DNA of 63,709 bases, filler included, from Reclinomonas americana ATCC 50394 (Eukaryota), in assembly GCA_048213135.1 (NCBI GenBank). It is 16 parts of 16 records of this genome, joined end to end, with 100 filler letters (N's around TTAATTAATTAA, not from the genome) between each part and the next. Parts side by side here need not be neighbours in the genome. Positions count along the whole stretch, not along the records: positions 1 to 8,049 come from AFZH01018858.1; 15 more parts are not named here. The stretch is one strand, 5' to 3'. A program made the translations under genes and the position numbers. Shown piece by piece: positions 120 through 40,103 of this stretch. Under the pieces are notes generated by a model. That model was not told where the DNA came from, made no database searches, and saw nothing but the letters and a program-made list of their open reading frames with translations. Position 1 is the stretch's first letter, and each line of letters starts with the position of its first letter.

Positions 120-3100
120 CTACACGTCGACATCCATGGCAGCTGCAGCGGAGACTTCTCGTTCGCGGTCGCGCAGCTCCAGCGCTTGGCGAACTTCGCG
201 GGCCAGTGGACTGTCTGGTCCAAGTCGCTCACGAGCCTTGCCTCGCGCTACCTCGAAAGGCATTCGATTCTTGGAATCGCGAGCCTCGAACATCTTCGGA
301 AACCGCAGGGCCACCATCCACATCATACTCTGTGCATCACGCACGATCAGCAACGACCAGTTGCAAAACATCAACAATTCCATGCTACTTCGCACCACAG
401 AGTTCCGATGTTTAGCATAAGCAATCGTGTGCAGCAGAGTGTACCCCCACTCGCTAGTCACTCTGAGCAGTACTGACTCGGGCACCCGTTCACTGGTCAA
501 GAATAACCTGAGGACGGCCTCGTTGCCGGAGCGGCAAGCTTTGTGCGCACTGTGCATTTCGTGTTGAGAATATGATCGGACCAACAAAGTCAACAAACCG
601 GGTACTCAACGCAGTCGCTCCGTTGGCATCATCCACCTCGACTAGTGCTGGTACTGTCTCCAACAACCACTCTGCCAGCTCAACTGAGCCCCTTGCAGCA
701 GCGGCCATGTGCAACAGCGTGTGCCCTGAAGAATCACGAGCATCGCGCACGAGCTCGACACCGTACTTCTCCACCATGGCTTGCATGAAGCTCGGCTTGC
801 AGCGGCAGCCGGCAACCATAAGCAAGTATTGCAACGAAGGCACGCAGTTTCCAGCTCCAGGATTCCGCTGCGCCATCTCCGTCATCTTGTCGAAAAGATA
901 GACCATCATGCGGGGATGTCCCACTGGCGAGCAAGGACGTCGACTGAGGAACGAGTTGAAATCTCGGAGAGATTCACGAGACGCAACTGTGGGCAGCCCA
1001 CTCCGCAGGCAACGTCGGTTGTGGTCCGTATATCGTATGCTTTTCGTTCGCGTGAGGGCTCTGAGACCACAACAGGTTGGGCTCGATTTCAAGGAGACGT
1101 GCTGCGGTCTGCAAGTTTCCTTCCGACTCCCAGCTGACACACAACTGGAAACCGTTGCGTTTGTACATAATATCGCTGTGCACCACCGTTGAGTCAGCCG
1201 CAAGAAGCGATGCCACAACAGAGCGATCGAAAACGAACACATCGTAGATGGCCTCCAAAAACTCGGCGCGCGCACAAAGAGTATACAGCATGTTGACCAC
1301 GTCCAAGCGACCTGCATGATGCAGCAACTCTCTTGAGAACACCTTGTAGAAGCCACAAAAAGAACAACATCACCTCGCACGAACCCCACATTGCAGCCAC
1401 GGCAAGCACATTGTATCCTCTGATATCTTTGACACGGAACAGCGATGGATCCCTCTCCAGCATGCACTTGACCACCTCTACGTGGTCGTGTTGGGCAGCC
1501 AAGTGAACTACACGCATGCTTAGAATCAGAACGGCAGCTAGTAGGCGAGCGTTCGCACGGAGGACATCAGCAGCACACGATACTCAACTGGCTAACTTGC
1601 GCGAATAGTTGCAGGCAAGAAGACTCGACTTGAACTCAATCAGTTTCTGCACAACTTGCAAGTGGCCGCTAAAGGAAGGAAGAAGGATAATAAAACACCA
1701 AGTCCAAGACAGGTGCGTGAGACCTGACACAGAGACGCAACTTGGTTGCAGCTACGTGAAGTGGCGTGTCGCCAGTTTCGCCCAACGCCGCACTCATCAT
1801 GCGATCGCGGTCGCCGTCAGACAATTGCAGTACTAACAGCTTGTCAAGCATTTGCGAGTGGCCGCATTGCGCCAACCAGTGCAACGGAGTGTACCCTTTG
1901 TCGGACAAGTCGCACAGTTGGAAACCGTGCCTAGCCGTGTGCAATAACTCGATGAACAATTCGTTGTCAACTGGCAATCGTCTCCACTTGCTGAACGAAG
2001 CCAGTGCAAGTGGAAATTTTTCGAGAAACGCCTGCAGCAAGTCGTAGGCCTCCTGCCTGGTTATCGACGGCTGCATTTGGAGGAGGAACTCTTCGAGTTG
2101 GTCCGCCCAAATATCCACACCTGCAGTGATTTCAGAGCAAAATGAGCAACAACACGCACGCATCGCAGACATGTGCAGTGAAACCCATTTGCGAACCGAG
2201 AGTACAATTGTTCGCATAGACGCCGAGCGGGATCAAGAGCCGCTGGTACTCATCCGTGATTTCACAGAATTCCTCGCGGCTAAGCACTCGCTGCGGCATT
2301 TTGAGTCTCCAAATGTCGATCAAGAGACTAGACTGCAGCGAGTCAATCACACTTTAGTGCATGTGGACACCGCAACAAACACGCAGGGAAATAGTTGCAA
2401 AAAGGCATAATTGCATACCCAAGAACGCCACGTCTTGCACCGCTCGACGCCGTGAGTCTCCAACACGGGCATGTGAACGTCCAACTTGTTGATGAATCTG
2501 TAATCCACACCATGCACACCCATCTCGACTGCCAGCTTCTCGACCTCCTGCGTGGTGCGTGAGCGACATGCACTGCACATTACGAGATCTAGACTCTTAG
2601 AGTAGAGCCCTCCAGGTCTGCGAAACTGAGGCATCATTTCGTTGTGGGTTCCAACGATCGCTCCATTGCTGAGCAAACAGGTACCAAAGAGCCGACACAA
2701 TGGCGCGGTTCATCGGACGTCGCTGCGTATAGCCCAGATTGCAGTCGAAATCCCGACTTTGGAGACTACGCAGCCACTCAGCCACAGGCTGAATGACACT
2801 CAAAGTAATAATAACCACATCCCCAGCCGCTCCCTGTCACTAAAGCAAGTGAGAATTTAAATGGCGGCGCAGTAGGAGCGAGCGACATCTCACACTCACA
2901 TGCGAGCTATGCCGTGAGCGCACCAGGAAGCGATCTATGTGCTGCAGACATTGATCCAGACGTACGGAGTCCCAGCCAGCAGCTGGTTCCCATATCCGCA
3001 AAACAACGAGAAGTTCATCCGCAGTGAGAGGAATCTGGTACGAATCGTTACCGCACCAGTCTTGGCCGACAAGCTCGGACCCTACGCGCTCAACCGCCGG

Positions 3101-6100
3101 TAAGAACAAGGGAGTACAACATCAGCACATGTGCGACACAACGCAACAAAGCAGAACTTGCAGGATCGGCTTGACATCGTTAAACTTGAGGGGCGATGAA
3201 CTTGATCCGTGCCCAACAGCAGGCACTGGTGACGGTGGAGGTGAATACGTCTTCAGTTGCGCCACAATCTTGCCGATGAGTGCTCGAAGCTCAGGTGCAT
3301 GTAAAGCATGGAGCGCCTCTTCCAAAAGGTGCTTTTGTCCTTTCTCCGTGTAGTTATCCACGACCGCTCGCAAATCCGCTGTTGCGGGATTCCCGTCCAG
3401 CTTGCGAGCAAGTTGACGACACATGGCGTCGTCCATTTCATCGCACTCATCCAGAAAATCGACCCACGATGGACCGCTGGGAACGAAGTGCATTCTGAAC
3501 AGCTGTTCGTACAACTCGGAGAGACCCTGTTTGACCCGAAGCTCTCAGTAAAACCACAGCAGAGACTGGTAAGGTCTAAATAAACGTTACAGTCTACAAA
3601 CCTCGGGAAGACTGCCGCTTTGCTTCCCTCCTTTGCTGATGACGTCCAAAAGCTGAGAAAAATACGCAAAATTGTTGCTGGCGATGCTGCATAGCCTCTG
3701 GACACCGTTTTCGAACGTAGCAGCGTCCTCGTGCGCGACCGACCATTTGCAAACCGCACGGAACACCAGCTCGTCCTCACGAGCTCGAGTGCGTGCGTAC
3801 TTTGACACAGCCGCAAGATACGGAGCTGGTTCGTCGAGTCGAATCGGCTCAATTGGTGGCTGGCAGGGAACACGACAAGAAATTACACAACAACTCGTGT
3901 GCGAGGCAGACGAGAATGCTGAGGTTGAGACGCACCAACGATGCTGTATCGAGCAGGGCGCGGATATTGTCGACAGCAGTCTCGCTGCAATCAGTCCATG
4001 TGAGCACAATCCGAAGCCACGGAGGTGTGCGTGCAATCCTGCAGCAATCAAGCGAGACTTCACACAGTGACGCAAATGAGGGACGTGACTCTCCCATGAA
4101 CGCACATAGAGAAGAGTGTCGCACAGAAATCGCGATCGGCGTCTCTGTCCAGATACTGCATGCCGTCGATGAAGAACAGCTTGTGTGGCTGTGGGGTGGT
4201 GAAGGAGTAATTGCAGTGAGAATTTCGAGTGCAGGAAGTCAAATGAATCACCTACGTACGCAGCTTGTTGTGAGAGACGGCCCAATGGATCATGTACAAA
4301 CGATCCCAACCCAGCACTTGACTGAATATCGGTCACATCGCCCATTTGGAGCACGACGTGCAACTGTTCGCGGTATCCAGGCACAGACCGAAGCAGCATG
4401 GACGACACGGAGCGAGTAAACTGGCTAGCTTGCCGGGTCGCGTGATCATCACGGCGAATAAAGTAAAATCCAGCGACGTGATCCAAAGCCATGCCAAGGC
4501 CAACGAGATCCTGTTCCAGTCATGCAGTAAGTTAGCGCTCTCTTTTCTGCCGAGTAAGATGTGACAAACCTCTCGTACCGAGCCCTCGTGATCAAAGTAA
4601 CGAGAGCAAAACTTACTGGCAACATCAGTAACGAGGTACGTTTTGCCAGTACCGGTCGCTCCATGCAGAATGCACAGCTTAGCGGGCGACGTGTTCCGAA
4701 ACCTCGCCAGTTGCTCAAGGACATCGTCACGCCGACAATAATCCCGCATGGCAAACGCATTGAAATGCTCAGCCTGTGTAACAGCCTGCGATTGGCTATC
4801 GACAGCAGCAGTCACCGCATCGCTCCGCAGATGAGGACTGCGTGTGCGTCGCTGTCAACAAGGTCCGAGCGAAGATGGTCTACACGCAAAACAGACGCAC
4901 CGCCGATGATACTTTTTAACAGCAAACTCAGAGTGCGATAGCGTGATGAACTCGTGACCAAGGAGCTGTTGCGCACTCCAGCGAGACTCTCTGTTGGTGA
5001 AGATGCAAGTGAGAGGATGGAGTGGCACTGGAATGCAGGCAATCGAAGTAACGAACTTGTCTACGCAGAAGCAGTGGCTCAAGAAGCTCTTTGCTGCATC
5101 GCTCAATCCGGGGTGCCTGTCATACTCAGCTTGCAGTTGGCTGATTGCTTCTCTGAAGTCGCCGACTATGTGGTCCCGGAGAAGCATCTGCACCACCGTC
5201 GAGCAGCTAACGATGAGACAAGAATATTAGACACGCCAACACCGCCCACACATTGTTTCACCTCCAGCACCACGACTCCCAGCGACCATATGTCGCTCTT
5301 GACGGTTGCCGCTTCCCCGCGCACAACCTTAAAACACACACATAGAGAGGGACGTGAGAGAGAGAGACAGGGAGAGGAGGGAGAGTGAAGGGAGGGAGAA
5401 CTAGTGAGCGAGTGAGTGAGAGTGATCCTGAGTATGATTTCCACTCCACCTCTGCACATACAAGCAAAAGTAAGCAACAATGCATCCAGCAAGATACTCA
5501 CAGCATCTTATCAATCTCAACCTGGAGCCATGTATCCGGCAGTTCCGCACACAGTCTGTGTGATTTCACCTTCAACCACTGGCTTACTTGTGCCTGTGAA
5601 AGCAGTGACCATGAGCTCCACGAGTGAGTACCACGAGTTTCGACTGACCGACACATACCAAAATCAACGATTTTCAGAACGACAACACGGCCGCGATCAC
5701 CGTCAAGCTCGTAGTGCACGAGAACGTTTTGAGGCTGCACATGCTTGTGAGAGCGAGAACCAAGCTATTCTAGCACATGAACAAGCTGGGACGTCATCAG
5801 GTAACCTTTAGATCGCGATGCTTGAAATCAGTAGTTAGCGCAAGAGTACAGTTTGCATGAGACAATCACAAAACACACACTCACCACAATCGGAAATGTG
5901 TGCAAGTGGTGGAGACCTTCCAGCAGCTGCCACGTCAAATGTGCCTGAGAAATACAGTGCCTGGTGAGCCCTAGCAATGACGCGAGAGGTGTTCTCGCGC
6001 GAGAGGTACGCAACAGCCCAATTTTCGTCGACCTCATACTGGTGAACGAAGTTTTTCAGTGTTCCCCCACTGTAGCACTCCATGACTGGCGTGACGGAGT

Positions 6101-6448
6101 ACGTGTGCGCGGTGAAACACCGGAGGACGAGGATGGAGAGTAAAGAAGACGATGGAGATTCGTACCGAGGAACTCCGTACGAGCACCCATCTTTGCCACC
6201 ACAGATTGCAGGTTCTCCGCCACGTACCCGCGGCACAGGTTCTTGTGCGGATGCCGAGTTACAGCCGCCAGTGCGCGGCGCTCGCGCATAATATCTTCGA
6301 TGCGATGCTGCACCGCGGATCCGGAGGTGAGACACAAACATGACACCAAGGCGCACGCACATTCACGCGTGCAGACAGACCCCTGCGCGTCCGCCTGAAA
6401 ACACTGAGAAAATCTTCACAGCCGCATGCTGTGGCGAAAGTCCCTTGT

Positions 6449-6482
<34 letters not shown>

Positions 6483-6590
6483 AACAGACGATGCGCCGCG
6501 GCTGCTCCCAGATCCATCACCATCATCCACCCAAGTCACCGACTCCAGCTTCACCTGACACACGCCTCCAAAGGCGCCTCTGCTGTGGAT
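120..6590 (-). CDS. Multi-exon NLR/STAND-like protein: Ser/Thr kinase - NACHT-type NTPase - helical domains - ankyrin repeats (5' end uncertain)
   Basis: Spliced translation gives kinase motifs RGAFGGV, AAVKIF, HRDLKPQN, DFG, GTAGYMAPE and DIWSLG. An in-frame GT-AG join leads into Walker A HGATGTGKT, then GFYFIRRDD...SVSSMLL, Walker B LFFIDGM, PPWLRIVLT, SNNFAY and LPEGLSELYEQLF. Ankyrin repeats follow (GYTPLHWLA, GDTPLHVAA, GHTLLHMAA, GYTLLHTIA). Splicing across about 2100-2850 is not fully resolved. Confidence 0.75.
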
Positions 6591-7709
6591 GCTTGCGTTG
6601 CTCCGACACATGGCAACATCTGCGTGTGTGCGACAGCGAAGAGAGAAGAGCGGAACAAAGAGGGTCAACCCGGCACAATAAGACAACTCGGCACAATAAG
6701 CCTTCGCCACACACCGGACTCCGTGAGTACAACGTGCCACGGCATGATGATGTCGACGATGACTGGCAAGTGCGTGTGCACGATGGTGTGCACTCGCAAC
6801 ACCGACTGACTGTGACGGACTGCAAGTCTGTGCAGGACACAACGAAACTGGAGTGCCTGAAGGAGAGTGAAGCAGGCATGAGGTGTGCAAGGAAGCAGGT
6901 ACCCTCATGGATCACGCAGCAGTCACAGTGCAAAGAGCGACGGAGAAAACGCATGCGCAGACGTTGACGTCGCATGCGCAGTCGCTTGCTTCTGTGTATC
7001 GTCACTGATCACAGCCCAGCAGACCAGCGGATTTGCTTGTGAGTGCGCGTGCGTGCGTGAGGAGAAGTGCCTGTTGCGTGAGTGCAGACACAGTGACTCG
7101 AGAGTGAGAGCGGGCGCGCTGATTCCGGACAACTCAACCTGCAAGCCCGACGATCCCATCAATGCTCAGACTCCTCTCTGCAACATTCTTCCTCTCCCCT
7201 TCCTCTCCCTCCCTCCTCCCTCACACACACACACTCTCTCACTCACACACACGTACACTCTCTCTTTCTCTCGTTGCTGCTCAGCAGGTCGGCACACGTA
7301 CACACACAAACACGTGGTGCATACGCGATTCACTGTACATGCGCCACCCGTCCTTGCATCGCGACAGAGAACGAGAAAGCGTGGCGGAGTTTCCGGACGA
7401 CGCTGCGATCTTGGCGAAGCTCCGATCAATGTATGGACGGATTCGAATTCTCGTCGCGTTGTGCGCTGGAGAGTGCGTTGAGTGAGTGAGAGAGTGTGTA
7501 AGTGGTGAAACAGTAAGCTCGCCTACCATGATGATGATGCATATGACGTTCTACAATGTTGCGTGCGAACGACAGGAAGGAGAGAGAATGATGAGGAAGA
7601 TGGGGTGTGCGTGATTGTGTGTGTGTGTGTGTCAGAGAGAGAGAGAGGGTGTGAGAGCCTGAGAGAGAGAGCAAGTGAGTGAGTGCGCGTGAAAGAGCGA
7701 ATCAGTGTG

Positions 7710-7753
<44 letters not shown>

Positions 7754-7989
7754 TGAGTAGTGGGAGAGAGAGTGAGTATGGGAGAGAGAGTGAGAGCCTG
7801 AGAGAGCGCGCGAAGTCGCGATTGATTCCCGACACGCATCTTCCCGCTCTCTCTCTCACACCTCTACTCTCTCTCACACACACATACACACACACAAGCA
7901 GTGCACGACAACAGCACAAAGCACAAGAGGAGAGAGAGAAAGAAAGAGAGAGAGGAAGAGAGAAAAAGTGGTCGGCCATTTCAACTCTT

Positions 7990-8049
<60 letters not shown>

Positions 8050-8149
8050 NNNNNNNNNNNNNNNNNNNNNNNNNNNNNNNNNNNNNNNNNNNNTTAATTA
8101 ATTAANNNNNNNNNNNNNNNNNNNNNNNNNNNNNNNNNNNNNNNNNNNN
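8050..8149. other. Assembly gap linker (N44-TTAATTAATTAA-N44); first of 15
   Basis: The same all-frame-stop linker occurs at about 8094, 12245, 13669, 23457, 25214, 27556, 30757, 33137, 35292, 36557, 44534, 46854, 55768, 57901 and 61160. Confidence 0.97.
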
Positions 8150-8383
8150 GAGAGAGAGAGAGAGACGCGTTGAGAGAGCTGACGCAGGGAGTATAAGCAG
8201 CAGAGGGAGGGCTTGTCTTCCTTGTCTCTCGAGCCTGAAGCAGAACCTTTCATGTCCTCGCATAGAGAGAGAGACCCTTTGAGAGGGGTCAAGCAGGAGA
8301 AGTAGCGCTCTATTCTTCCAGTCTTGGCTCCGCCTGTCGCGCACTCCGTGGAGCAGCAGATCTCGCCTGTCTTCACACAAACA

Positions 8384-8421
<38 letters not shown>

Positions 8422-9130
8422 CTGACTCTTGGAGAGAGGTGAAGCAGGAGAGGGAGGACTCTATTCTTCCTTGCCTCCCTTGTCTCTCGCGCATGAAGTA
8501 GAACCTTGTCTGTCTTCTCTTTGAGAGAGGGAGGATAAGCAGCAGAGGGAGGGCCTGCCTTCTTTGTCTCTCGCGCCTGAAGCAGAACCTTGCATGTCTT
8601 CTCTTCGAGAGAGGTGCAGCAGGGAGGATAAGCAGGAGAGTTAGGACTTGCCTTCCTTGTCTCTCGAGCGTGAAGCAGAACATTGCTTGTCTTTGCAAGG
8701 AGAGAGAGAGAGATACTCTTTGAGAGAGGTGCAGCAAGAGAAGGAGAGTTCTATTCTTCCTTGCCTCCCTTGTCTCTTGTGCATAAAGCAGAACCCTGCC
8801 TGTCTTCTCTTTGAGAGAAATGCGGATACGCAGGGGAGGGAGGACTTGCCTTCGTTGTCTCTTGAGCGTGAAGCAGAACCTTGCCTGTCTTCGAAAAGAC
8901 TGAGCGAGCGAGAGGGAGGACTGTCTCTCCAGGAGTGCCTTGCTGATATTGCCTATCTTCGCAGAGAAACGCAGAGGGAGTAGTCTTTGTGAGACTCTAT
9001 TCCTCCTTGAAAATTGTGTCTCGAACCCCGCCTGTCTTCACGAGATCGAGAGGGCGGTCTGTCTCTCGACCACTCCGCGAGAGCAGACCTTGCAGATCTC
9101 GCCTGTCTTCACAGAGTTCCTCTCTATCTC
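8150..9130. repeat. Imperfect tandem repeat (GAAGCAGAACCTTG..TGTCT core), probably intronic
   Basis: Recurrent gcgtgaagcagaaccttg and ctctattcttccttgcctccc blocks spaced about 80-120 bp apart. Confidence 0.75.
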
Positions 9131-9536
9131 TCGATCACAAGTCGTGCATGTGGCAACTCTCTTCTCGCTTGGCATTGTTCATCCTTGCCGTTTCTCTCGC
9201 CCCGGTCGTTCGTATTCGTTGCGGACAGGGAGCTGCCATTGTTACACATGTTAGCCTGCACACATTCTCAGAGAAAAGAGCGATTACCGTGACACTCGTT
9301 GACTTGCATGGAATGTGAGTGAGAGAGCATCCACACTTGTGTATGCAAGAGGCAGTGAGCTCTTCCTTGGCTCTTTCCCTTTCCTTCCCTCTCTCACTGT
9401 CTCTCTGTCTCTGTCTACATGCATGTATGCTTGCATCATTCCTCTCTTCTCTCCCTTCCCTCTCCCTTCTCCCCTTCCCTCTCTCTCCTCCCCCTTCCCT
9501 CCCATGTCCCTCATCCCCCCTTTCCCCTATTCGCAG

Positions 9537-9801
9537 CCACTTCCACGTCAACACCTCCACCTCCGACCGCATCGGCGGCAACCCCCGCTCCACCGGCACC
9601 CGCGTTCTCGTGATTATCGCGCAAACACTGCTCACGACCCTCGTCACCGCTCTCGGCTACTTCCTCATGCTGGTCTCCATGACCTACAATGTCGGCGTCT
9701 TCCTGTCCATGATGGCCGGCTTTGCCATCGGCTACGCCGCCTTCCTCAGGAGTGCGCTGGCCGCCGGAGCCGTCACCGGCAGCCACTGTGCCGGCCTGTG
9801 A
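9537..9801 (+). CDS. Ctr/SLC31 copper transporter, last exon (5' exons unresolved)
   Basis: After a pyrimidine tract and CAG: ...LGYFLMLVSMTYNVGVFLSMMAGFAIGYAAF...HCAGL*. This contains the Ctr MxxxM-x12-GxxxG signature and a C-terminal HC. Confidence 0.85.
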
Positions 9802-9915
9802 GGCGGCGCGCGTGTTCGAGTCATTTTGTTGTGAGTGTGAGTGCGAGTGTAGAAAATATCAGGGAAAAAACACCATCAAGTGAAGACACCATTTGATTTA
9901 CATTCAACCCCCCTC

Positions 9916-11969
9916 TTAGCAGGCCTCGGGCGCCAGCTGCTTCTTGGCAATGATCTCGTCGACGGGCAGCGGGCGGAGTGAAGTCGTGTCGAATGACTGC
10001 GCTCACGCGGAAGTGAGTGAGAGAGAAGAAGAAGAAAGAGAAAAGAGATATCGTGGAGGCGAGAATAACGAGTATGAGAACGCTACACGCAAAGAGCGGG
10101 AAGGAGGCAAATCAAGAGGCGAAATGGCAGACACAGACAACGGGTGAGATAGCCACTCGCAAAACAACAGTGGGAATGAGACGGAACCGGTGATAAATGG
10201 ACAGCGTAGACACACAATGCGCGTGAGAGCTACACGCAATCAATAGTGAGAAGGAGGGAGGTCATGAGACATACTGACACCGAGAAAGGTTGACAGACAG
10301 ACAGCACGCTCGTTCGCAAAGAAAGGGTGAGAAAGAGCACAGACGGCGACTCACTGACATCCACACAGACAAAGAGAGCTCCTTTCTTCCCTCCCTCTCC
10401 CCCCACCCCCCTTCTCGTTCGCAACGAAAGGGCGAGAAAGAGCACAGACGGCGGCTCACTGACATCCACACAGACAACGAGAGCTCCTTTCTCCCCTCCC
10501 TCTCCTCCCACCCTCCTTCTCGTTCGCAAAGAAAGGGTGAGAAAGAGCACAGACGGCGACTCACTGACATCCACACAGACAAAGAGAGCTCCTTTCTCCC
10601 CTCCCTCTCCCCCCACAACCCTTCTCGTTCACAAAGAAAGGGCGAGAATGAGCACAGACGGCGGCTCTCTGACATCAAGAAACCACACAGACAAAGAGAG
10701 CTCCTTTCTCCCCTCCCTCTCCCCCTACCCCCCTTCTCGTTCGCAAAGAAAGGGCGAGAATGAGCACAGACGGCGACTCACTGACATCAGGAAACCACAC
10801 AGACAAAGAGAGCTCCTTTCTCTCAACCCTCTACCCCCACCCCCCTTCTCCCCTCCCCTCAATCTCGACGCACATCAATCACATGCAGCTTGCCCTTCAG
10901 GCGCCGATCCGACGCGCTAAACTCCACGCCCTCCTCGCTCAACAGACGCCGCTTGCGCACCAGCTCGTCGCTGTCCCAGTCGGTGGCGCCCGAGAAGCCA
11001 CCAATGCCCGTGTCGGTTTTCACCACGCTGCGCGCACACAGTCAAGCACAGGCAGCGACAATGGAGGCGCATGTCGTCACTCACCGATGGCACGGAATGT
11101 GTGGCGCGTACGGGTTTCTCCGCAGCGCCTGGCCAACGGCCTGCGGGGCGGCAGCGAGGGCCGTTGCAATGGCCTTGTAGGTGGTCACGGCGCCTGGAAG
11201 CGAAAGGGTGGAGTGAGCGTGATGGGCAAAGGCAACAGCGAATGAGGCAAGAGAAGAAGTGAGAGAAAGAGGAAGGAAGGAGGGCGGGAAGGAGAGCGCG
11301 AGAGGGACATCTCATCTTCTCTTTTTTCTTCCCCCGCCCTTCCCCGTCGCCCTTCTCTCTTGCCTCTTATCGTCTCCTTTCTTACGCCGCTCTCGATCTC
11401 TCGCCTTTTCTCCTCCCTCTATCATCGCCCGTCTTCCCCCTTGCCCTTCTCGCTTTCCTCTTCTCTCTCTTTCTCACTCTCTCTCTCTCCTTTCGCCTCT
11501 CCTCTCACACTCCACTTTCATTCCTTCTCCCTTGCCCTTCTCCCTTTCCTCTTCTCTCTCTCTCTCTCATTCTTCTCTCTTCCCCCTCACTTCCCCTTCC
11601 TGTCACTCGCCCCTTCTCTTTCCCTTTCCTCTCCCTTCTCTCTCTTCTCTCCCACTCTCTCCACATCCAGGCCTTCTCCCTTCTCTCTCCCTCCCACTCT
11701 CTCCACTTCCTGTTCTTCTCCCCTCCTTCCTGTCACTCGCCCTTCTCTTTCCCTCTGCTCTCTCTCTCTCTCTTTCTCCCTCCCTTTCTCTCATCTCTCT
11801 CCTTCTTCCTCTCCCTCCCTTTCCTCTTCCTCCCATTCTCACCTGGCGGCACATTGCAGAGGATCTCATACACCTTGGCCTGAAACTCAGTGATCCCCAG
11901 CTGTTTGGCCACAGAGGCATAGTCGCGTGCACCAGCAGCACTCTCAGAAGACGACGACGAGGCAGAGGA
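9916..11969 (-). CDS. MGMT: O6-methylguanine-DNA methyltransferase (4 visible exons, 5' partial)
   Basis: Spliced: ITEFQAKVYEILCNVPPGAVTTYKAIA...AVGQALRRNPYAPHIPCHRVV...GIGGFSG...KRRLLSEEG. The PCHR active-site motif is intact. Confidence 0.92.
10310..10860. repeat. About 105-110 bp intronic minisatellite, 5 copies (MGMT intron)
   Basis: Units starting gttcgcaa(a/c)gaaaggg at about 10312, 10417, 10523, 10627 and 10739. Confidence 0.9.
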
Positions 11970-12034
11970 CTGTGTGACAAGAGCGAAGAGTGGGGGTCAG
12001 TGTGAGAGAAACCAACTCTCTCTCTCTCATACAC

Positions 12035-12077
<43 letters not shown>

Positions 12078-12536
12078 GGACGACACACACACACACACAG
12101 CGCGTACGTCTTCGTTGTTTGTTCGTCGTACTCCTACACGTACGACGAACAACGTAACGTAAGTAGGTAGGTCGGTGGTGGTCGGTCGGTCGTCCGACGG
12201 NNNNNNNNNNNNNNNNNNNNNNNNNNNNNNNNNNNNNNNNNNNNTTAATTAATTAANNNNNNNNNNNNNNNNNNNNNNNNNNNNNNNNNNNNNNNNNNNN
12301 GTGGGAAGGGGGAAGGAGAGAGTACCAACGTGGTAAGACAGTGCAGCGGGGTAGGAATGTCAGAGAGCGACTCAAGGAAACATCGGAGAGTACGAGGAGG
12401 TGCTTGCAGAAGGGAGAAGAAGAGCATCGATGATGAGGTGTGGCCAACGGTGGCTTGTGCTGTCTTATTCCTTGTTGTGGTGTGCCGTGGTCTTTTAGCT
12501 CTTCAGAAAAGTGGCGCTCACTCTCTCATGCTCTCA

Positions 12537-12573
<37 letters not shown>

Positions 12574-13015
12574 TTCGAGAAGAAGGGTGGATTGAGCTGT
12601 CTTATTCCTTGGTGTGGTACGCCGTGGTCCTTTGTGTCTTCTGAGGAGCGCTATTGGCTCTCTCTCTCTCTCTGTTGTCGAGGAGAAGGGTGGATTGAGC
12701 TGTCTGATGTGGTTTTTGCTTTTCTGAAATAGGTGCTCACTCTCTTTCCTCCTTTCTGTGGTCAAGGAGAAGGATGGATTGAACTGTCTTTTTTCCTTGC
12801 TGTCGTATGCCGTGGTCCTGTGTCTCCTCTGAATAATGGCGCTCTCTCTCTCAGTCGTTCTCTCTCTCTGTGATCGAGGAGGGTCTCATTCCTTGATGTG
12901 GCCGTTTGCCGCTTCTATGTCTCCTTTTCTTTCTGTGTGCGTTATCGTCCTTTGCTCCCCTGTGCCCTTTTCCATCTCGCTTGTCCTGCTGTCTAACTCC
13001 CCCCTCCTTTCCCAG

Positions 13016-13724
13016 AAACGCCGCGGCGGCAACGACGACTCCACCGAGCTCAAGGGCCACACGGGCCAGGTGGACACGCTGGCCTGGATGCCCACGGATC
13101 CGTCAGGCCTCGGCTCCGCCTCCACCGACAAGACGCTGCGATTGTGGGACACACGCAGCTCATCCAAGGAGGCGCACACGGTCATCAAGACGCCGGGCGA
13201 GAACCTGAACATGGCGTGGAGTCGCGACGGCCTCTACGTCGGTGTGATCAACAAGAACGACTTGTGTTGGATCATCGACTCGCGCACACACGAGGTGGTG
13301 TACAAGAAGCAGTTCAAGATGGAGAGCAACGAATTCGCCTTTAGTCCGCGAGGCGACGAGTTCTACGTGACCGTGTCGCCGACGTATGCCACCAACTCGC
13401 TGGAGGTGTACTCGTTCCCGTCGTTTGAGCATGTGCACACGCTGCAAGGGCACACCAGTGGGTGCTTCTTCTTGGATATGGATCCGGAGGGAAGGTGTGT
13501 GGCGGAGGGAATGGAAGGGGGAATGGAGGATGTGGGGAAAGGGGAGGGGGACGGAGATGGTAAGAGAGAGAGATAGATTGAGAGGGAGAGGAATGTCGAA
13601 TGAGCGGTGTGAGATAGTGCGCGGNNNNNNNNNNNNNNNNNNNNNNNNNNNNNNNNNNNNNNNNNNNNTTAATTAATTAANNNNNNNNNNNNNNNNNNNN
13701 NNNNNNNNNNNNNNNNNNNNNNNN

Positions 13725-14492: not shown

Positions 14493-16192
14493 TCACAGCT
14501 TGGCCAGCAGCTTCTCCGCCGCGCTCTCAGCCACACCGCGCTGCTTCTCCACGCCGACCCAGGAGATCTTGCCGCGCTCGACGAGCATCGCGTATCTGCG
14601 GAGATTAGCAAAGGGAAACAAATGAGCAACAGGGCGAGGAGGAGGAGAGAAACGAAAGACATAAGTCTATATCTGTGTCTTGTTCAGAAAGCAATCTGAG
14701 ACCAAGAATCTCTCACTTCCGTATCTCTCGAGACCTTTGATGCATACGCTCTCGTGGGTTGCAGCAACAACCTTTTTGAAACAGCGAGACAGAATGCAAC
14801 AGGAACGGGGAGAGGGAAGACGCGAATGACAAAACACACGAAGAGAAGAGAGAGAAGGCAGGGAGAGAGGAAGAGGAAAAAGCGAGAAAACTGCAAGAAA
14901 CTCTCGCTGACGAGCACACAAGAGACGGAAATCAGCAACTGCACCGCTCATCATTCCTCTTGTTGATTCATCTCTTCCTGCGCGCGCGCTCTCTCTCTCT
15001 CTCACACACACATACACACACACTCACACGTTCCAGTAAAATCATGACAAAGAAAGTCTCTCTCTTGCCCACTTGTCTCCTCCCTCCTGCCCACTCGCCT
15101 CCTTCTTCCCCCTTCTCCCCTTCCCTTCCCCTCCCCCTTCACCCACCTCATGGACCGCTGACCCATGCCAAACGCCGACGCATCCGTCAACAACCCCAGC
15201 GCCGCCGTCAACAATCCATTCCCATCGGCCACCATGATCAACTGCACAAGATGAAGCCTGTGAACAACTGCCACCGCCACCACCACCACAGCTGCTGCCA
15301 ACGCAAGAGAACCTTACTGGGCGCACCCAGATGGCGCCACCACTCTTGCATCACAAACGCGTCGTTCACAGAGACGCAGACAACGCGATCAACGCCCTAG
15401 ACGACAGACATTAGCAGTGAGGGAACGTGAGAAGGGAAGGGGAGGGAGTGTGAGAAGGGTGGGAGAGGGAAGGGAGAGAGAAAGGAGAGGGAAAGGAGAA
15501 AGGAAACGGGAAGGGAATGTGAGAGAAAGGAGAGAGAAACAAGGCGGGAAGGAGAGAGAAAGGAGAGAGAAAAGAAAGGGAAAGGAGAGGGAAAGGAGAG
15601 AGAAAGGAGAGAGAAAGGAGAGTGAAAGGAGAGGGAAAGGAGAGGGAAAGGAGAGAGAAAGAAGGCGGAAAGGAGAGGGAAACAGGACGGAGAGGGGAGG
15701 GAGAGGGCAACACAGAAGAGTGAGAGAAACGGGAAGGGAAAGGAGTGGAAAGGTGAGGGAAAGGATAGAGTAAGAGACAGGAGAGGGGAAGGAAAGGGCA
15801 GCTCACTGAGCAACACCTTGCTTTCAAAGTCGCTGAGCTTGGCAATGACACCGGGAATGTGCGACTCGGAGCACGTGGGAGAGAAGGCTGCATGCAACAG
15901 CATTGGTAACATGCATGCATGCATTGGCTTTGCTCGTCATCACTCTCTTACCTGCAGGCACTCCAAACACCGCCACGCGCTCTCCTCCCGCACCCAGCAG
16001 TGTCCGCGCGTTCTCCACGCTCACTGTCGCACCTGCAGAGGAAGATCCGTCGCGGGAACACGACTCGCCACTCGCGGCAGTGGTGGTGCTTGCGCGCACC
16101 ACTCGCACGTTGAGAGTGGCGGGCACTCGGTGGACGAGCATCTCGCCGGCGGTGACTGGGGGTGGCGTGAGGGGAGCAGTCTGCTGCGACAT
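14493..16192 (-). CDS. Type II (PRX5/Ahp1-like) peroxiredoxin, 5 exons
   Basis: Spliced: [21 protein letters not shown]...[15 protein letters not shown]...IMVADGNG...[16 protein letters not shown]...AEKLLAKL*. Confidence 0.9.
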
Positions 16193-25080: not shown

Positions 25081-25269
25081 GAGAGGGAGAGGGAGAGGGA
25101 GAGGGAGAGGGAGAGGAGAGGAGAGGAGAGGAGAGGAGAGGAGAGGAGAGAGGAGAGGAGAGGGAGAGANNNNNNNNNNNNNNNNNNNNNNNNNNNNNNN
25201 NNNNNNNNNNNNNTTAATTAATTAANNNNNNNNNNNNNNNNNNNNNNNNNNNNNNNNNNNNNNNNNNNN

Positions 25270-26051
25270 TGAAAGGCCACACGAGTGTGGTGTCAGCAGT
25301 GGCAGTGACACCCGATGGCCAGCGCATTGTGAGTGGCAGTCATGACATGACTGTACGGGTGTGGTCACTGGCCAGTGGCAAGGAGGTGCTGCGACTGGAA
25401 GGCCATACGAGGGAGGTGTGCGCAGTGGCAGTCACGCCCGATGGGCAGCATATTATTAGTACCAGTAAGGACGAGACTGTGCGGTTGTCGTCACTGGCAA
25501 GTGGCGAGGAGGTGCGCCGATTGAAAGGCCACACGGCTGCGGTGCTTGCAGTGGCAGTGACACGCGATGGCCAGCACATTGTGAGTGGCAGTGGGGACGA
25601 GACTGTTCGGGTGTGGTCACTGGCAAGTGGCGCGGAGGTGCGCCGACTGGAAGGCCACACGAGTACGGTGCGCGCAGTGGCGGTGACACCCGATGGAAAG
25701 CACATTGTTAGTGGCAGTTATGACGAGACTGTGCGGGTGTGGTCGGTGGCAAGTGGCGAGGAGGTGCGCCGGCTGGCAGGGCACACACATTGGGTACGTG
25801 CAGTGGCAGTAACTCCCGATGGCCAGCACATTGTGAGTGGCAGTTGGGACAATACTATACGGGTGTGGCCCACGACGCGCGGGCATGCCCGCGCCGAGCT
25901 GCAGGCCGTCAGCGACGCCCACCAAGCCGTACGCGAGATCCAACCAGCTGTCGATGCTGCCGATGACAGACGATGTCTCGTGGAGATTGTGCTGCGCTGC
26001 TTCATCAGAGAGGATGCGATAGTCATTCTCTACCGTGCGCCAATCTTTTGA
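25270..26051 (+). CDS. Intronless WD40 protein with highly similar 42-aa repeats (5' partial)
   Basis: Five 126-bp repeats GHT..V.AVAVTPDGQ.IVSGS.D.TVRVW followed by a short helical tail. Confidence 0.9.
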
Positions 26052-33192: not shown

Positions 33193-36135
33193 GGCTGCGG
33201 CGTCCAGCGCACACACCGCGTCCACCGGCAACCCGAGGGTCCGGCGCCATTCGCTTCGACGGGCGATGATGCTGCCCCTGGTGCTGGCGGCGGTGGCGGT
33301 GGCGGTGGTGGTGGCATGGTGGCGAGCCAGCCCTCGATTTCTATTGATTTGGGGGTGAGTGTCAGAAACGCAGCAAAAACGGCGTCCCAGACAGCAGACA
33401 TACCCGCGGTAGGGACGGTTGCCGCCGTGCTGGAAGCTGTCGTGCTCTGGATCTCAATCAACTCCAGCCACTGTGCAAGGCCAGTCAGACCATGAATGGA
33501 GCGGAGAGAGACACAAATAGGGAACGGAGGGACAAGGGACAGAAGTGCGGAGACCAGAGACATTGATGGAGTGAGAGACGAAGCACACACAAGAAGATAT
33601 AAATGCGGAAACTGAGGCATTCTGTGACGGGGAGCAACCAAAGAACTGAGGAACGAGGGATACTGCAGGCGGAGGACTTGTGGGAGCACAGAGAGACAAA
33701 GGATGGCAACACAGAGGAAGACTGCAATGAACACAACCAAAGAAACTGAGGAAAGAGGGACACTGCAGACAGAGGACTTGCGGGAGCACAGCGAGATAAA
33801 GGATGGCAACGCAGAGGAAGATAGAAGTGCAGAGATTCAGGGATACTGAGACGGGAAGAGGAGGGACGGAAGCACAAGGGGATCAAGAATAGCAACACAA
33901 AGACGGAATGCAGAGACAGACGCAACCAGATGCACTGAGCGGATTAGGAGACACAGTGACGGGCAGAGGGGAGACGGAAAGCCAAAGGGATAAAGAGCAG
34001 CACCTAAGGATGGATGCATTTACAGAGATGCAGAGACAGACGCAACCAGATGCATTGAGAGGTCGATAGACACTGTGGCGGACGGAAACCGACAAAGGAC
34101 AAGGAGAGATGTACAATACAGCAGAATTCGCGGTCAAATGCTGAGAAAAAGAGCAAAGAGAGAGAGAGAAAATGGAGCATATCGAAACTCCCCATACCCC
34201 CTTTGCCTTCCCTCCTCCACTCTCACCGTCCGTTCACTGTCGGTAAGTTGATGCGCCTGGGCTCGTGCAAACAGAATCCGACCAATGCGACGCACCAAAC
34301 GCGCGCATCTGCACACCTCGTCACAACACTGGCTCACTCACAGCGTGAATGGAAGAAGAGTACGCAACTCGGCAAGCGGATTGTGACGCAGCGAGGCCCA
34401 CAAGCGCGACAGACCGAGAAGTTTCGGCAGCGATAGTGTGTCAACGAACTTGGCGAGGATGTAATCGGTGATGATCGTGCCGAGTTTGCGCATCTGGGCG
34501 ACAAGCAGGTGCTTGGTGAGCGACAGGCACATCAACGGCGAATGGAAACGTCTCTTCCTTTCGTCTTCTTCCCTTCGTTCTCCTTCCCTCCTCCTTCTCT
34601 TTCTTCTCCTCCTTCTCCTTCTCCTCTTCGCTCTCTTCTTCTCTCTCTTATTTTTTCCCTTCCCCTCTTCGCTCTCTCTCCTCTCCCTTCTCTTCTCCTC
34701 CTTCTCTTCCCCTCCTCAACTTCTTCTTCTCTTCGCTCTCCGTCCCTCGTCCTCCTCGTCCTCTCTCCTTCCTCTTTTCTATCGCTTCCTCTTATCTATC
34801 TCTTCCTCCTTCTCCTTCTTCTCTTTGCTCTCTCCTTCTCTCTCTTTTCCTTTCTCCTTCCTCTTCTCTGTCTCCTCGTCTCCTTCTCCTTCTTCTCTTC
34901 GCTCTCCCTCCTCTCCCTTCTCCTTCTCCCTCTCCTCGCCCTCCCTCTTCCTCAACTCCTGCATCAGCGGTGGAGGACCACAGCGCGCGCGCCAGGTGCG
35001 CGATAAGCGACGTGGAGAAATGCGGCCACGCCACGCGGCACCGCTGCAGCAGGGCATCCCACAGCCGAAAGTCAAAGTTGTCCGGCGACCCTCTGCCCAA
35101 CAAATCAGCACAAACCAAAAAAAGCAAAACACTCTCTTTTCTTGCATCGCCTCACCTGGACGACCACGACTCAATCATGGCCTCGCACAAGGCCGGGCAC
35201 AGCACATCATCGACATTGTTGTAACTCGTCACGTGCACCAAACGACCNNNNNNNNNNNNNNNNNNNNNNNNNNNNNNNNNNNNNNNNNNNNTTAATTAAT
35301 TAANNNNNNNNNNNNNNNNNNNNNNNNNNNNNNNNNNNNNNNNNNNNAAGCAGCGCTGCGGAGCAACAACAGTTGGTCATCACACACAGCACTCTTCCCC
35401 ATCACAAACACACGCGCGCACCACGCATCGGGTCCACATCCTCATCCTCCTCCACATTGCCGTCCACACTCGCCTCCTCGTCCTCCACATCCTCGTCGCC
35501 ATCGACGGGGTCCTGCACCATCAGGCCCTCGACATCGGGTTCCACCTCGCGCCCGCCACCACCGTGCGGTCGCTCGTACAAACCAAGCAGCGCCGCCATA
35601 CTCGACCGCTTGCTGCTCGCCGCCGCCGCCGCCGCCGCCAAACCCGGCGACGACACCGACACGAACGCAGCAGCCCCACCACTCTGCGTCTGCATCGCCA
35701 CATACGAGCTCACCAAGCGCACAATCGCCGCCTTGCGCTCCTCCAAGTACGCCGCCTGCTGCTCCCAGTAGCTCTCACGCAGCCACACCAGCGCCTGCCG
35801 CCTGGCCAGTCGCAGCGTCGACCACGACGGCAGCGCACCATGCGTGGCCGCGTGTCGCACATTGACCAGCAGCGGAGGCAATCGCATGCGCTCCGCACGC
35901 AGTCGCACCGACGACGCCGTGGCGCCCTGCGTCTGATCCACGAGTCCATTCACTAGTCGCACAATGGCCATGCACAGTGTCAGTCGCCGATGCTGGCGAT
36001 CCGCGGACGACAGTGATGCCTTCTTGTCATCGTCGTCGTCGTCATTGTCGTTGTCGTCGAGTTGTGACTGGAGGAGGTCGCAGGTCACGTCGGCTGCCAC
36101 GGGAATGCGACCGCGGGAGCGCCACATGTGTAGCT
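33193..36135 (-). CDS. LAS1: LAS1 pre-rRNA HEPN endoribonuclease (partial, spans a gap)
   Basis: WRSRGRIPVAADVT...LCMAIVRLVNGLVD...LPPLLVNVRHAATHGALPS...ALVWLRESYW (HEPN RHxxxH). Downstream WDALL...WPHF and W...WTPQ fit the C-terminal region. Confidence 0.88.
33500..34100. repeat. Imperfect intronic repeats in LAS1
   Basis: Duplicated accaaagaactgaggaa..gaggga.actgcag and gcagagacagacgcaaccagatgca blocks. Confidence 0.65.
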
Positions 36136-36392
36136 GCAAGGGACAAAAGGGAAAGCGAGAGGGAGAAGGAGAGAGAAGGGCGAGGCAGAGGAAAGGGAGA
36201 GGGGAGTGAGTGAGAGGGTGTGTGTGAGAGTGAGTGAGTGAGTGAGTGAGTGAGTGTGAGTGTGGAGAGAGAGAGTGTGTGTGTGAGTGAGAGCGAGTGA
36301 GTGTGAGTGTGGAGAGAGAGGGAGTGTGAGTGAGTGAGTGACTGAGTGAATGCATGCATGAATCAATGCATTCTTCCGCTCCACTCATCCCT

Positions 36393-36478
<86 letters not shown>

Positions 36479-36695
36479 GTTACTACTACAACATAGTGAG
36501 TCGTTCCGTTTCNNNNNNNNNNNNNNNNNNNNNNNNNNNNNNNNNNNNNNNNNNNNTTAATTAATTAANNNNNNNNNNNNNNNNNNNNNNNNNNNNNNNN
36601 NNNNNNNNNNNNTCTCTCTCTCTCTCTCTCCTCCTTCCTTCCTTCGTTTTCGTTTCTTCTTCTCTACTACGTCTCTCCTCCTCCTCCTACCTCTA

Positions 36696-36753
<58 letters not shown>

Positions 36754-36767
36754 GAAGCTCGAATCGT

Positions 36768-39700
36768 ATGGGTCGAACATCATCGACACCTGCGCTGCTT
36801 GCTGGTGGTGGTGGATCGTCATCGTCTGCCACTGTTGCTGGTGGTGCTGCTGTTGCTGCTACTTCTTCTGCGTCGATGGCTGCTGGTGGCAGTGGGAATG
36901 TGGTGTCGTCGGTGGCTGCAGCCAGTGCGGTGTCGGTGGCGCGACGAGGGTCGTCGCCGTCGGTGGGCGATCGGGTGGCGAGGTGAGTGGGAGGGAGGAG
37001 GAAGGGGAGAAGGATGGAGGGAGTGGATCGTCTGTGGTCTGTGAGAGCAGTGGGAGCTGTGGTCTGTGAGAGCAGTGGGAGCTGTGGTCATGTGAGTTGT
37101 GAGAGGGAGACGGGAGCAGTGGATCTTCAGTGGTCTTGGAGAGCAGTGGCATGAGCGGAATAAGGGAGCTTGTGGTGTTCACTGGTCTTGTGGGTTGTGA
37201 GTGCCGGCAGAACAGTGGCGTGCGAGACGGGAGCAGTGGTCTTGTGAGTTGTTGTCGACTTGTGAGCTGGTGGCTTTGGAGACTAGTCGATCACTGCGAA
37301 TCGTGCGCTCCTCTCTCTCTTTCTCTTTTTCTTTTCATGTTCCAGAGAGCGGGGGTGAAGCGGTGAGGAGATCATGACATACCACCGACACAGATTGATC
37401 ACGCGATCATCAGTTGATGCAGAGAAAAGCGCAGCGAGCAGTGAGTGAGCTTGATCGCCTTGTGAGTCGTCACTCATGATTCTTGCGAGAGCTGGCATTT
37501 GACAGGCGATTGTGATCCCTTTTCCTCCTTCTCCTCCCTCTCACTCCTTCATCACATTGTGCAGTCGCGACTGGTCAGCCCCTCGACAAGTGGTCCAGCG
37601 CCCAGGCACCTCTGCTGGCAAGGTCCCTGCGCTACGCACACTTCTGCCCTTCCCTTCTCTTCCGCTCACTTGCATCGCCAGGCATCACTCGCCGTGAAAA
37701 CGATGCAACTTGTCGGCGCAGCGGAACCATCAGCTGCCGCTGCGTCGAACACGAGAAGTTGGGTGCCTGCCGACTATTGGTGCTGCACAGCCACTCCCTG
37801 ACCCGCTCTGTTGCAGTTGTCCGCCGGCCCACCAGCGCTCCACGAACACACTCGTCATCCGAAGCCGGCCACCGTGGCACCTGTTGCGTCGAAACACACT
37901 CTCCATTCTCTCCCTCCCTCATCATCTCACCCTTCCCGTGCCACACAGCACCCTCAAACGCCGGCATCACGGCAAGCGCCCTTACCGCCGCGGCACCCGG
38001 AGGCGCATCTGGCGCAGCCGGCGGAGGATCGTCGTCGGGCGGGCAGTCGTCTGGCCGCGCACCCACTCTCGTACTGTATCGCACACCGGAGGAGAAGTCC
38101 GCCAATCCCGAGCGACTCAACATAGATCGTCGAAATCTCACTGTTGCGTGAGGATGGAAGAAAGGATGTCCCTCTTTCCTTCTCGGGTGTGTGAATGAGC
38201 CTCTTTCTCTCTTCGTCGTGATCATCTCTCTCTTGCCACGCTACACAATCCCCATCCTTCACTTTCTCTCTCTATCTCATCCTTCCTTGTCGAGTCTACT
38301 TTTTTCCATACGTCTTCTCCCCCGGCCTTCGCTTTTCCCATTTTCTTCTTTCACCACTCTGCCCTCTATTTTCTCGGTTGTCTCGTTTCTCTCCTTCTCC
38401 TTGTCTCGTTCTCTTTCTCGTTCTCTCTCTCTCTCTCTCTCTTTCTCGTTCTCTCTTTCTCGTTCTCTCGTTCTCTTTCTCTCCTTCTCTCTCATCATCC
38501 CCTTATCTCGTTCTCTAACCCGCTTTCTTCCATATCCCTTTCTGTCTTCCCTTCCGGCCTGTGCCTTTGCCACTTCCTTCTTTCACCACTGTGCCCTCTA
38601 TTCTCTCCTTGTCTCGTTCTCTTTCTCTCCTTCGCCTTCTCTCATTCTCTCCGTCTCTCCTTCTCTCCTTCTTCTCTCTCTCCTTCTCTTTCCCCACCCT
38701 TCCCCTTCCCCTGTCCCCACCCCTTCTCCTTCCCCTTTCCTCAACCCCCCCGCAGAACTGCCCGGTTCTCCACGGCGAGGAGCGGCTGAAGCTGCTCAAC
38801 TACCAGAACAACCTCATCACGGAGATCAGCAACCTGTCGGGTCTGCCCAACCTGATCTTCCTCGACCTGTACAATAATCAAATTACAGTTTCGCACCGCC
38901 GAGTCCCTGTCTCCCTTTCCCTCAACCCCCTTTGCGTAACTTGTGGCAACATTGCAGCACATTCGCAACCTCGACTGCGTACCGACGCTGCGCGTGCTCA
39001 TGCTCGGCAAGAATCGCATCGAGACTATTGAGGGCTTGGAGTCGCTCACTCGCCTCGATGTGCTCGATCTGCACAGCAATCGGATTCGAGCAATTGGTAC
39101 GCGCCAGCTTGCTGCTTGTATGAGTGAGCTGGTGATCGAGTCTCATCACTCCGCGCGCCAACAGAGAATCTCGGGCACTTGCGCGAACTGCGCGTTCTCA
39201 ACTTGGCCGGCAACGAGATCACACACGTACGCAATCTGGATCAGCTCATGGCGCTGACGGAAGTGAATCTGCGGCGTAACAAAGTTTCGTTTCTCTTTCT
39301 TGGTCCTCCTAGTGATGGTGTCTGCGGCGCCTCACTCGCCCACCCGTAGATCAATCGCGTGGAGGGTCTCGGTCGTCTCGTGCAACTGCAGCGAGTATTC
39401 CTCTCCAACAATCTGCTGGCGACCTACTCGCAGTTCGAGTGCGTGTTTGATGTGCCGAGCTTAATGGGTGCGCTCAGTCTCGGCAGGGGTTGGAGGAGTC
39501 TCTTTCTTGTGCAGAGAGGCTTACTTTGAATGACAGAGCTGGCGCTGGACAGCAATCCAGTGGTGGAGCAACGGGCCTACCGACAGTACGTGCTGGAGAG
39601 ACTACCGCGCTTGCGCCACCTGGATCTCAAGCGTGTCACTGATGAGGTGAGGATAGTGTTGAAGGTCACCAAGTGCTGTCAAAATATCGGTGATTGAGTT

Positions 39701-40072
39701 CTTGTGCGCAGGAACGAGTTGCCCTGGATGCGGATGCGAGGCCGGTCGAGGTCAGCACACATCTCACGCACTCCTCGGTCTTTCCTTCACTTCCTTATTC
39801 TCCATGCAAGCTCTTTTCAAACTCTCCCCTTCTCTCACTCTCTCCACCTTCTTTGTGTTTTCCTCTTTTCTTCACCATGCAAGCTCTCCCTTCCAGATCT
39901 CTTCTTCCTTCTCCTCCTCCTCCTCGTTCTCATTATTCTCTCTATTCTCTGCCTCTGTACTGCTGGTGCCTTCTATTGCTCTTCCCCTCCTCCTCCTCCT
40001 TTTTCTTCATCTTCTTCTTCTTCTTCTTTTTCTTCTTCTTCTTCTCCTTCTCTCTCTCTTCTCCTTCTTCCT

Positions 40073-40103
<31 letters not shown>

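Follow-up and report, generated by a model that had tools for sequence, protein, structure and literature searches.

The window analyzed here is a stretch of 63,709 nucleotides (nt) from the assembly GCA_048213135.1 of Reclinomonas americana ATCC 50394. Near its left end, on the minus strand, lies a locus that is clearly eukaryotic and intron-rich. We find that a protein kinase domain, a NACHT-type STAND NTPase and a series of ankyrin repeats can be read from it, in that order, in one predicted spliced frame of 27 exons with no internal stop codon. An initial annotation of the same DNA had proposed this order of domains as an NLR-like receptor, and our model upholds the order. The features of the locus, all on the minus strand, are as follows.

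120..6611, minus strand: the whole gene model, with 27 exons, 26 GT-AG introns and 1561 codons plus a TAG stop, translated without interruption.
4901..6611, minus strand: protein kinase domain, exons 1-11, residues about 8-325, placed by a kinase profile and by per-exon Pfam Pkinase matches.
5806..5820, minus strand: predicted 15-nt microexon encoding HRDLK, with which the catalytic loop reads IVHRDLKPQN; AG precedes it and GT follows it, and the neighboring introns measure 64 and 71 nt.
5402..5451, minus strand: predicted 50-nt microexon that brings the frame back after GTAGYMAP and adds the E of APE; between introns of 70 and 74 nt.
3158..4837, minus strand: NACHT-type STAND NTPase with its helical/winged-helix part, exons 12-17, placed by hhalign, HMMER and per-exon Pfam matches.
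4639..4662, minus strand: Walker A motif GATGTGKT; no other credible Walker A site occurs in the window.
4162..4179, minus strand: Walker B motif LFFIDG, followed by MQY and lacking the usual acidic pair; aligned to llivlDgLDe of an NPHP3_N-type profile.
1960..3088, minus strand: linker of some 380 residues, covering exons 18-21 and the first part of exon 22, with coding-type codon usage.
123..1960, minus strand: ankyrin repeat region, exons 22-27, with about ten repeats by eye and Pfam Ank-family matches.

In the raw sequence and its stop-to-stop open reading frames (ORFs), the kinase, P-loop and ankyrin pieces appear in changing frames, with short GT...AG stretches between them. The gene model was assembled junction by junction, and GT-AG introns alone were considered. 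It begins with an ATG at 6611 and ends with a TAG at 122-120, with 0 internal stops in 1561 codons. The 26 introns measure 49-86 nt, 25 of them within 61-86 nt, and the longest non-coding gap inside the model is thus 86 nt. Because only GT-AG introns were considered, the presence of these dinucleotides at every junction was an assumption; the regularity of the intron lengths and the closure of the frame were outcomes of the modeling. Codon usage was scored on an earlier version with 26 exons, before the final model was reached. There, the model frame had the best score in 24 of the 26 exons, and the pooled introns scored negative in all three frames. Chaining exons by maximum length was also tried and was discarded, as it picked long non-coding frames. 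ORFs upstream of 6611 score poorly as coding, which makes the ATG at 6611 a reasonable start, and the antisense ORFs of the locus gave no family match.

The motifs quoted in the initial annotation (GATGTGKT, LFFIDG, PWLRIVLT, NNFAY and LPE/GLSELY, the slash marking a splice boundary) are all found on the minus strand. The splice that it quoted (cg/gtgcgt...cgcag/t) corresponds to a 63-nt intron between 4901 and 4837, whose removal keeps the frame between the C-lobe of the kinase and the P-loop exon. The span of 120-6590 proposed there agrees with our model at the 3′ end, at the TAG; the 5′ end of the model lies slightly further out, at the ATG at 6611.

The kinase domain is supported by a profile made from 27 cyanobacterial Pkinase segments, drawn from 30 loci after three were dropped as short or duplicate. 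The spliced protein matches this profile over residues 61-314 with 91.9 bits (E 2e-30), against a maximum of 5.8 bits among 500 shuffled sequences. Scanned exon by exon, Pfam Pkinase (PF00069) gives two co-linear matches of 16.8 and 15.9 bits, at model positions 121-153 and 168-189. These remain below the cut-off of 31.7, and they are weak because the kinase exons measure only 5-77 residues. Exon 1 (6611-6381) contains the G-loop and the VAVK-type lysine, and the spliced model as a whole reads GAFGGV, AAVK, IEDIMRE, HRDLKPQN, DFG, YMAPE and DIWSLG. The set of catalytic residues is therefore complete in the spliced model: glycine loop, beta3 lysine, alphaC glutamate, HRD aspartate, catalytic-loop asparagine, DFG and APE. 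Two of these elements depend on predicted microexons, the HRDLK on one of 15 nt and the E of APE on one of 50 nt. Since all catalytic motifs are in place once both microexons are read, we predict from the sequence that the kinase is active. The kinase proposed in the initial annotation is thus borne out, by way of two microexons that it did not mention.

Exon 1 also carries an in-frame insert rich in acidic residues and alanine (6432-6543, minus strand), which is encoded by triplet repeats of GCC and GAC and separates the glycine loop from the beta3 lysine. The insert can alternatively be removed as a 111-nt GT-AG intron with the frame kept.

Both microexons were absent from our first model, which had two flaws: its catalytic loop read IVH-VQPQN, without the HRD aspartate, and one junction could not be closed in frame. 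Only two introns of that model exceeded 90 nt (141 and 194 nt), and each hid one microexon with a kinase motif. The 15-nt microexon at 5820-5806 yields IVHRDLKPQNVLV, and the kinase profile score rose from 72.9 bits in the first model to 91.9 bits in the final model that includes it. The 50-nt microexon was selected among in-frame, stop-free GT-AG middle exons as the one with the most typical flanking introns. Two other readings were dropped along the way. A pseudokinase, with the loop read as IVH-VQPQN or HKHVQPQN, was abandoned once the HRDLK microexon was found, and a frameshift or assembly error at the junction of exons 7 and 9 was abandoned once the 50-nt microexon was found.

Nothing but the doubled length of their host introns pointed to the two microexons. 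Exons of 15 and 50 nt can thus carry essential catalytic motifs and are easily overlooked by automatic annotation, which would probably miss both of them in this genome.

The kinase is followed by an NTPase of the NACHT type. Other matches to the Walker A pattern in the window occur only at 48082 and 21453, both in frames interrupted by stops. The remaining motifs are spread across the exons: FYFIRRDD in exon 13, PWLRIVLT in exon 15 and NNFAY in exon 16, while LPE/GLSELY is divided by a 75-nt intron between exons 16 and 17. To place the domain, local profiles were made from cyanobacterial loci (20 of 24 usable for NPHP3_N, 28 of 30 for NACHT and 29 of 30 for NB-ARC). With hhalign, the match to the 20 NPHP3_N-type domains has 97.0% probability (E 9e-11, 249 columns); the match to the classical cyanobacterial NACHT set reaches 26% over 39 columns, and a reversed-sequence control 0.5%. 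With HMMER, the NPHP3_N-type profile scores the spliced protein at 24.1 bits (E 4.7e-7 over 501 targets), while 500 shuffles gave at most 4.1 bits. An earlier NPHP3_N-type profile of 14 sequences had given 18.6 bits. The HMMER profiles of the cyanobacterial classical NACHT (PF05729 type) and NB-ARC sets were not matched (1.8 and 6.2 bits, with shuffles reaching at most 4.7 bits).

When the NPHP3_N-type profile is run on members of the other families, NB-ARC sequences score a median of 12.7 bits and classical NACHT sequences a median of 80.9 bits (minimum 21.7). These values place the protein as a divergent member on the NACHT side. The HMMER alignment extends from the helix before the P-loop to the nnplyl...LPkklqeyYe motif, which is paired with NNFAYF...LPEGLSELYE. 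In between it passes Walker A, the ilyfid strand (FYFIRRDD), Walker B and the vfvltsR strand (RIVLTWT). This alignment covers six exons and thus provides independent support for the splice model.

Single-exon searches point the same way. Pfam matches in the Walker A exon are AAA_16 (E 3.5e-5), nSTAND_NTPase5, NACHT (E 0.006) and NPHP3_N (positions 16-46). The following exon matches NPHP3_N alone (positions 52-96, E 0.0046), and a later NTPase exon matches AAA_lid_TANC1 (E 0.22); the matches are co-linear across exons. A language-model look-up placed the Walker A exon nearest to a cluster named 'tanc2 family' (0.94), which we treat as a lead only. The same look-up with exon 16 gave scores of at most 0.87 and low recognition, and is uninformative. 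A sequence search of the PDB returned only generic AAA+ P-loop matches for the Walker A exon (E at least 0.014) and nothing for exon 13. The P-loop domain thus matches a STAND profile, of the NPHP3_N type, and the likeness to the HET-E/NWD branch (TEP1/NPHP3_N-type NACHT) that had been proposed from its motifs is supported.

The linker exons match no Pfam family at E values up to 1. Nevertheless they look coding: the model frame outscores the other frames in codon usage in five of five exons (model exons 17-21, one of which is counted with the NTPase part). Downstream, Ank-family matches were found in four of the six C-terminal exons tested, above the cut-off in two and weaker in two. Exon 22 matches Ank with 29.3 bits (cut-off 21.1) and Ank_2 with 29.2 bits (cut-off 27.3), and exon 26 matches Ank_4 with 27.5 bits (cut-off 22.7). 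The weaker matches are those of exons 24 and 27. With about ten repeats by eye, the region exceeds the "at least six" on the same strand that had been counted initially. Of the three domains that the initial annotation expected a hidden Markov model scan to recover, single-exon Pfam scans therefore returned the ankyrin repeats above cut-off, and Pkinase and NACHT/NPHP3_N below it.

We consider it fairly probable that the locus is one gene for a 1561-residue ATPase of STAND/NLR design, composed of an N-terminal kinase of the Ser/Thr type, a TEP1/NWD/NPHP3_N-type NACHT, a linker and about ten ankyrin repeats. We infer a single transcript from the frame, which stays closed, from introns of like size and density in each of the three parts, from the coding potential of the linker and from the lack of any non-coding gap above 86 nt. 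The predicted spliced frame holds an effector domain, a NOD module and C-terminal repeats in one protein, which is the layout of an NLR in the broad sense.

Several observations weigh against this interpretation. All splice junctions are predictions in which GT-AG introns alone were considered, and in-frame alternatives exist for the exon 19 donor and for the 49-nt last intron. A site resembling a splice acceptor at 6621 makes the start codon uncertain and leaves room for a 5′ exon. The 50-nt microexon is of low complexity and has a negative codon score, which makes it the weakest part of the model. The local profiles were drawn from cyanobacterial sequences only, and the single-exon Pfam scores of the NTPase are below gathering cut-offs (NPHP3_N 15.5 and 17.6 bits against 24.8; NACHT 16.8 bits against 26.7). 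In a single alignment of this divergent sequence to the profile, the NTPase tentatively has DGMQY in place of DgLDe and LTWT in place of ltsR. ATP hydrolysis may be slow or impaired, since this alignment shows neither the acidic pair behind Walker B nor the sensor-1 arginine.

The connection between the kinase and the rest of the protein could be read differently, as two adjacent genes, a small kinase gene and a NACHT-ankyrin gene, that can be joined in frame by coincidence. With retention of the 63-nt intron after 4901, the kinase frame stops 14 codons on (ORF 4855-5226), which leaves room for a kinase-only product or a two-gene arrangement, and an in-frame ATG lies about 20 codons ahead of Walker A. 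However, merely about 100 nt separate the kinase stop from that ATG. The junction itself has a consensus-like donor (GTGCGT), a CAG acceptor, a typical intron length and a preserved frame, and introns in the kinase part are as large and as dense as those in the remaining gene. We regard two genes as improbable. It is more improbable still, to the point that we give it little weight, that the locus is decaying or mis-assembled and has no functional product. Such a reading would draw on the fragmentary assembly, with 15 spacers of 44 N + 12 nt + 44 N within 64 kb, on the two microexons that the frame needs, and on the NTPase's lack of some catalytic residues. Against this, 1561 codons over 27 exons are free of stops, codon bias is of the coding type throughout, the kinase motifs are all intact, and the entire gene lies inside one contig (1-8049). 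The gene is real, intact and divergent, and its kinase-NACHT-repeat architecture is one that is already known.

For the single gene, by analogy with the general behavior of STAND proteins, we think that the product is most likely a ligand-gated switch that oligomerizes and thereby turns on its own kinase through proximity. The ankyrin repeats, together with the linker, would hold the NTPase closed in an ADP-bound state and would bind some ligand or partner. Such binding would lead to nucleotide exchange and to oligomerization of the NACHT modules. This, in turn, would bring the kinase domains together, resulting in mutual activation and in phosphorylation of downstream targets. The net effect would be a NOD-type sensor and its kinase in one chain.

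The protein could be an innate-immune (non-self) receptor of the NLR kind, in which the ankyrin repeats would sense a pathogen or damage ligand and the kinase would start a defense or death program. The order of effector, NACHT and repeats is the NLR order, and the NTPase is nearest to the TEP1/NWD-type NACHT that dominates in fungal NLRs. Fungal NLRs with ankyrin repeats, and rarely with a PKinase N-terminal domain, are described in two sources (PMC4986451, PMC12258605). On the other side, the ankyrin region shows no tandem repeat at the DNA level, in contrast to a WD40 array on another contig of the window, which has a period of 126 nt and 80% matches. It thus gives no sign of the repeat turnover that is typical of fast-evolving fungal NLR sensors. 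Fast-evolving immune NLRs are marked by repeat turnover, paralogue expansion and polymorphism; repeat identity, the feature examined here, is absent. Furthermore, there is no paralogue within the 64-kb window, and sequence searches found no relatives. NPHP3 and TANC belong to the same NACHT branch and are not known as immune receptors, which we also count against an immune role. On balance, we find such a role doubtful, and the non-self or stress receptor of the initial annotation stays a proposal.

A more specific proposal would be that a eukaryote that is neither fungus, animal nor plant has a whole innate-immune module, from sensor to kinase, in one chain, as if a NOD-RIPK-type pathway had been condensed into one protein. 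Its TEP1/NWD-type NACHT lineage would be too divergent for any relative to be detectable in current protein catalogues. We consider this unlikely.

The searches for relatives were as follows. A tblastn search of the gene model against the rest of the 64-kb window found no paralogue at E values up to 1e-3. An exhaustive phmmer search with the ORF at 3587-4519 gave 0 matches among 1.84 billion representatives. Word-indexed searches against longer proteins, with the same ORF, the Walker A exon and exon 17, found no relative, and of 557 pattern matches to exon 17 in a scan of metagenome contigs, 0 were confirmed. A limited literature search on NACHT proteins of protists and unicellular eukaryotes surfaced no kinase-NACHT-ankyrin protein outside fungi.

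The closest known architectures are compared here by layout. Fungal NLRs share the three-part order of PKinase, NACHT and repeats, the TLP1/TEP1-like NACHT branch and ankyrin as a common repeat type (PMC4986451, PMC12258605). In Dyrka et al. 2014 (PMC4986451), PKinase is listed in the table of fungal NLR N-terminal domains, and ankyrin is the commonest annotated repeat. The kinase had been called an uncommon effector, which is fair; it is not a new one, given its place in that table (PMC4986451). For Sordariales, PMC12258605 reports NACHT domains that are mostly TLP1-like and PKinase in 12 NLRs, where it is C-terminal in 9 of 12 and interpreted as a possible decoy; in the present gene, it is N-terminal. 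The gene also differs from fungal NLRs in having no detectable sequence relative and in having repeats that are not internally similar.

Among animal proteins, TEP1, NWD1/2, TTC41 and NPHP3 have a NACHT-type ATPase in a STAND layout, and members of the TEP1/NWD group carry an N-terminal TeTIR or other domain and no kinase, according to a preprint (bioRxiv 10.64898/2026.09.21.753143). Our NTPase resembles this group (TEP1, NWD1, NWD2, NPHP3 and TANC) in matching NPHP3_N-type profiles, along with the weak AAA_lid_TANC1 match. TANC carries ankyrin repeats, and an N-terminal kinase is not known among its features. The Pfam-scanned exons of the present gene contain neither TPR nor WD40 repeats, and the gene thus departs from the TANC layout of P-loop NTPase, ankyrin and TPR.

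Other systems couple a STAND sensor to a kinase output through oligomerization, among them the pairing of NOD1/NOD2 with RIPK2 and kinase-NLR fusions of plants, for instance Tsn1 of wheat. RIPK2 does not belong to the sensor chain, and CARD domains recruit it. In Tsn1, an N-terminal kinase is fused to an NB-ARC NTPase and leucine-rich repeats, whereas here the NB-ARC profile scores just 6.2 bits and the repeats are ankyrin. ROCO/LRRK kinases, which are common in amoebae and other protists, also combine ankyrin-type repeats, a nucleotide switch and a protein kinase in one chain. In these kinases, a Roc GTPase, Ras-like and accompanied by a COR domain, acts as the switch and precedes the kinase; our gene uses a NACHT-type STAND ATPase as its switch and has the kinase at the N-terminus.

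As it stands, the gene is a well-formed, ordinary member of a known architecture. If it is expressed as one mRNA, it would offer a compact system to test the STAND idea that oligomerization of the NOD module activates an output domain by proximity. The readout in such a test would be phosphorylation, a simple enzyme activity, rather than cell death or pore formation. If the host is a protist, the gene would extend the kinase-NACHT-repeat design beyond fungi.

The remainder of the window is a series of short contigs. Between 8050 and 61215, these are joined by the 15 spacers (e.g., 8050-8149 and 25170-25269), whose 12 bases read L-I-N beside the N runs. Sequence past 8050 therefore need not be the neighbor of the gene. 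The WD40 array mentioned above lies at 25273-25868 (plus strand) in an ORF at 25272-26051, with 4.7 copies of its 126-nt period and 80% matches at the DNA level. It matches Pfam WD40 with 190 bits over 5 repeats, as well as TEP-1 beta-propeller models, and its 5′ side is truncated by a spacer. High internal identity of WD40 repeats is typical of NWD/HET-E-type STAND proteins.

Two ordinary eukaryotic genes are recognizable on other contigs: a THOC3-type beta-propeller exon at 12833-13576 (plus strand, E 1e-44) and a phytochelatin synthase fragment at 59711-60508 (minus strand, E 1e-13). Long microsatellite-like tracts of CT/GA and CA/GT (7200-12100, 15400-16000, 34400-40700 and elsewhere) give rise to ORFs rich in SLSL, HTHT and RERE. 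Judged by eye, the other genes of the window seem to have longer, CT-rich introns, compared with the introns of roughly 70 nt in the kinase-NACHT-ankyrin gene.

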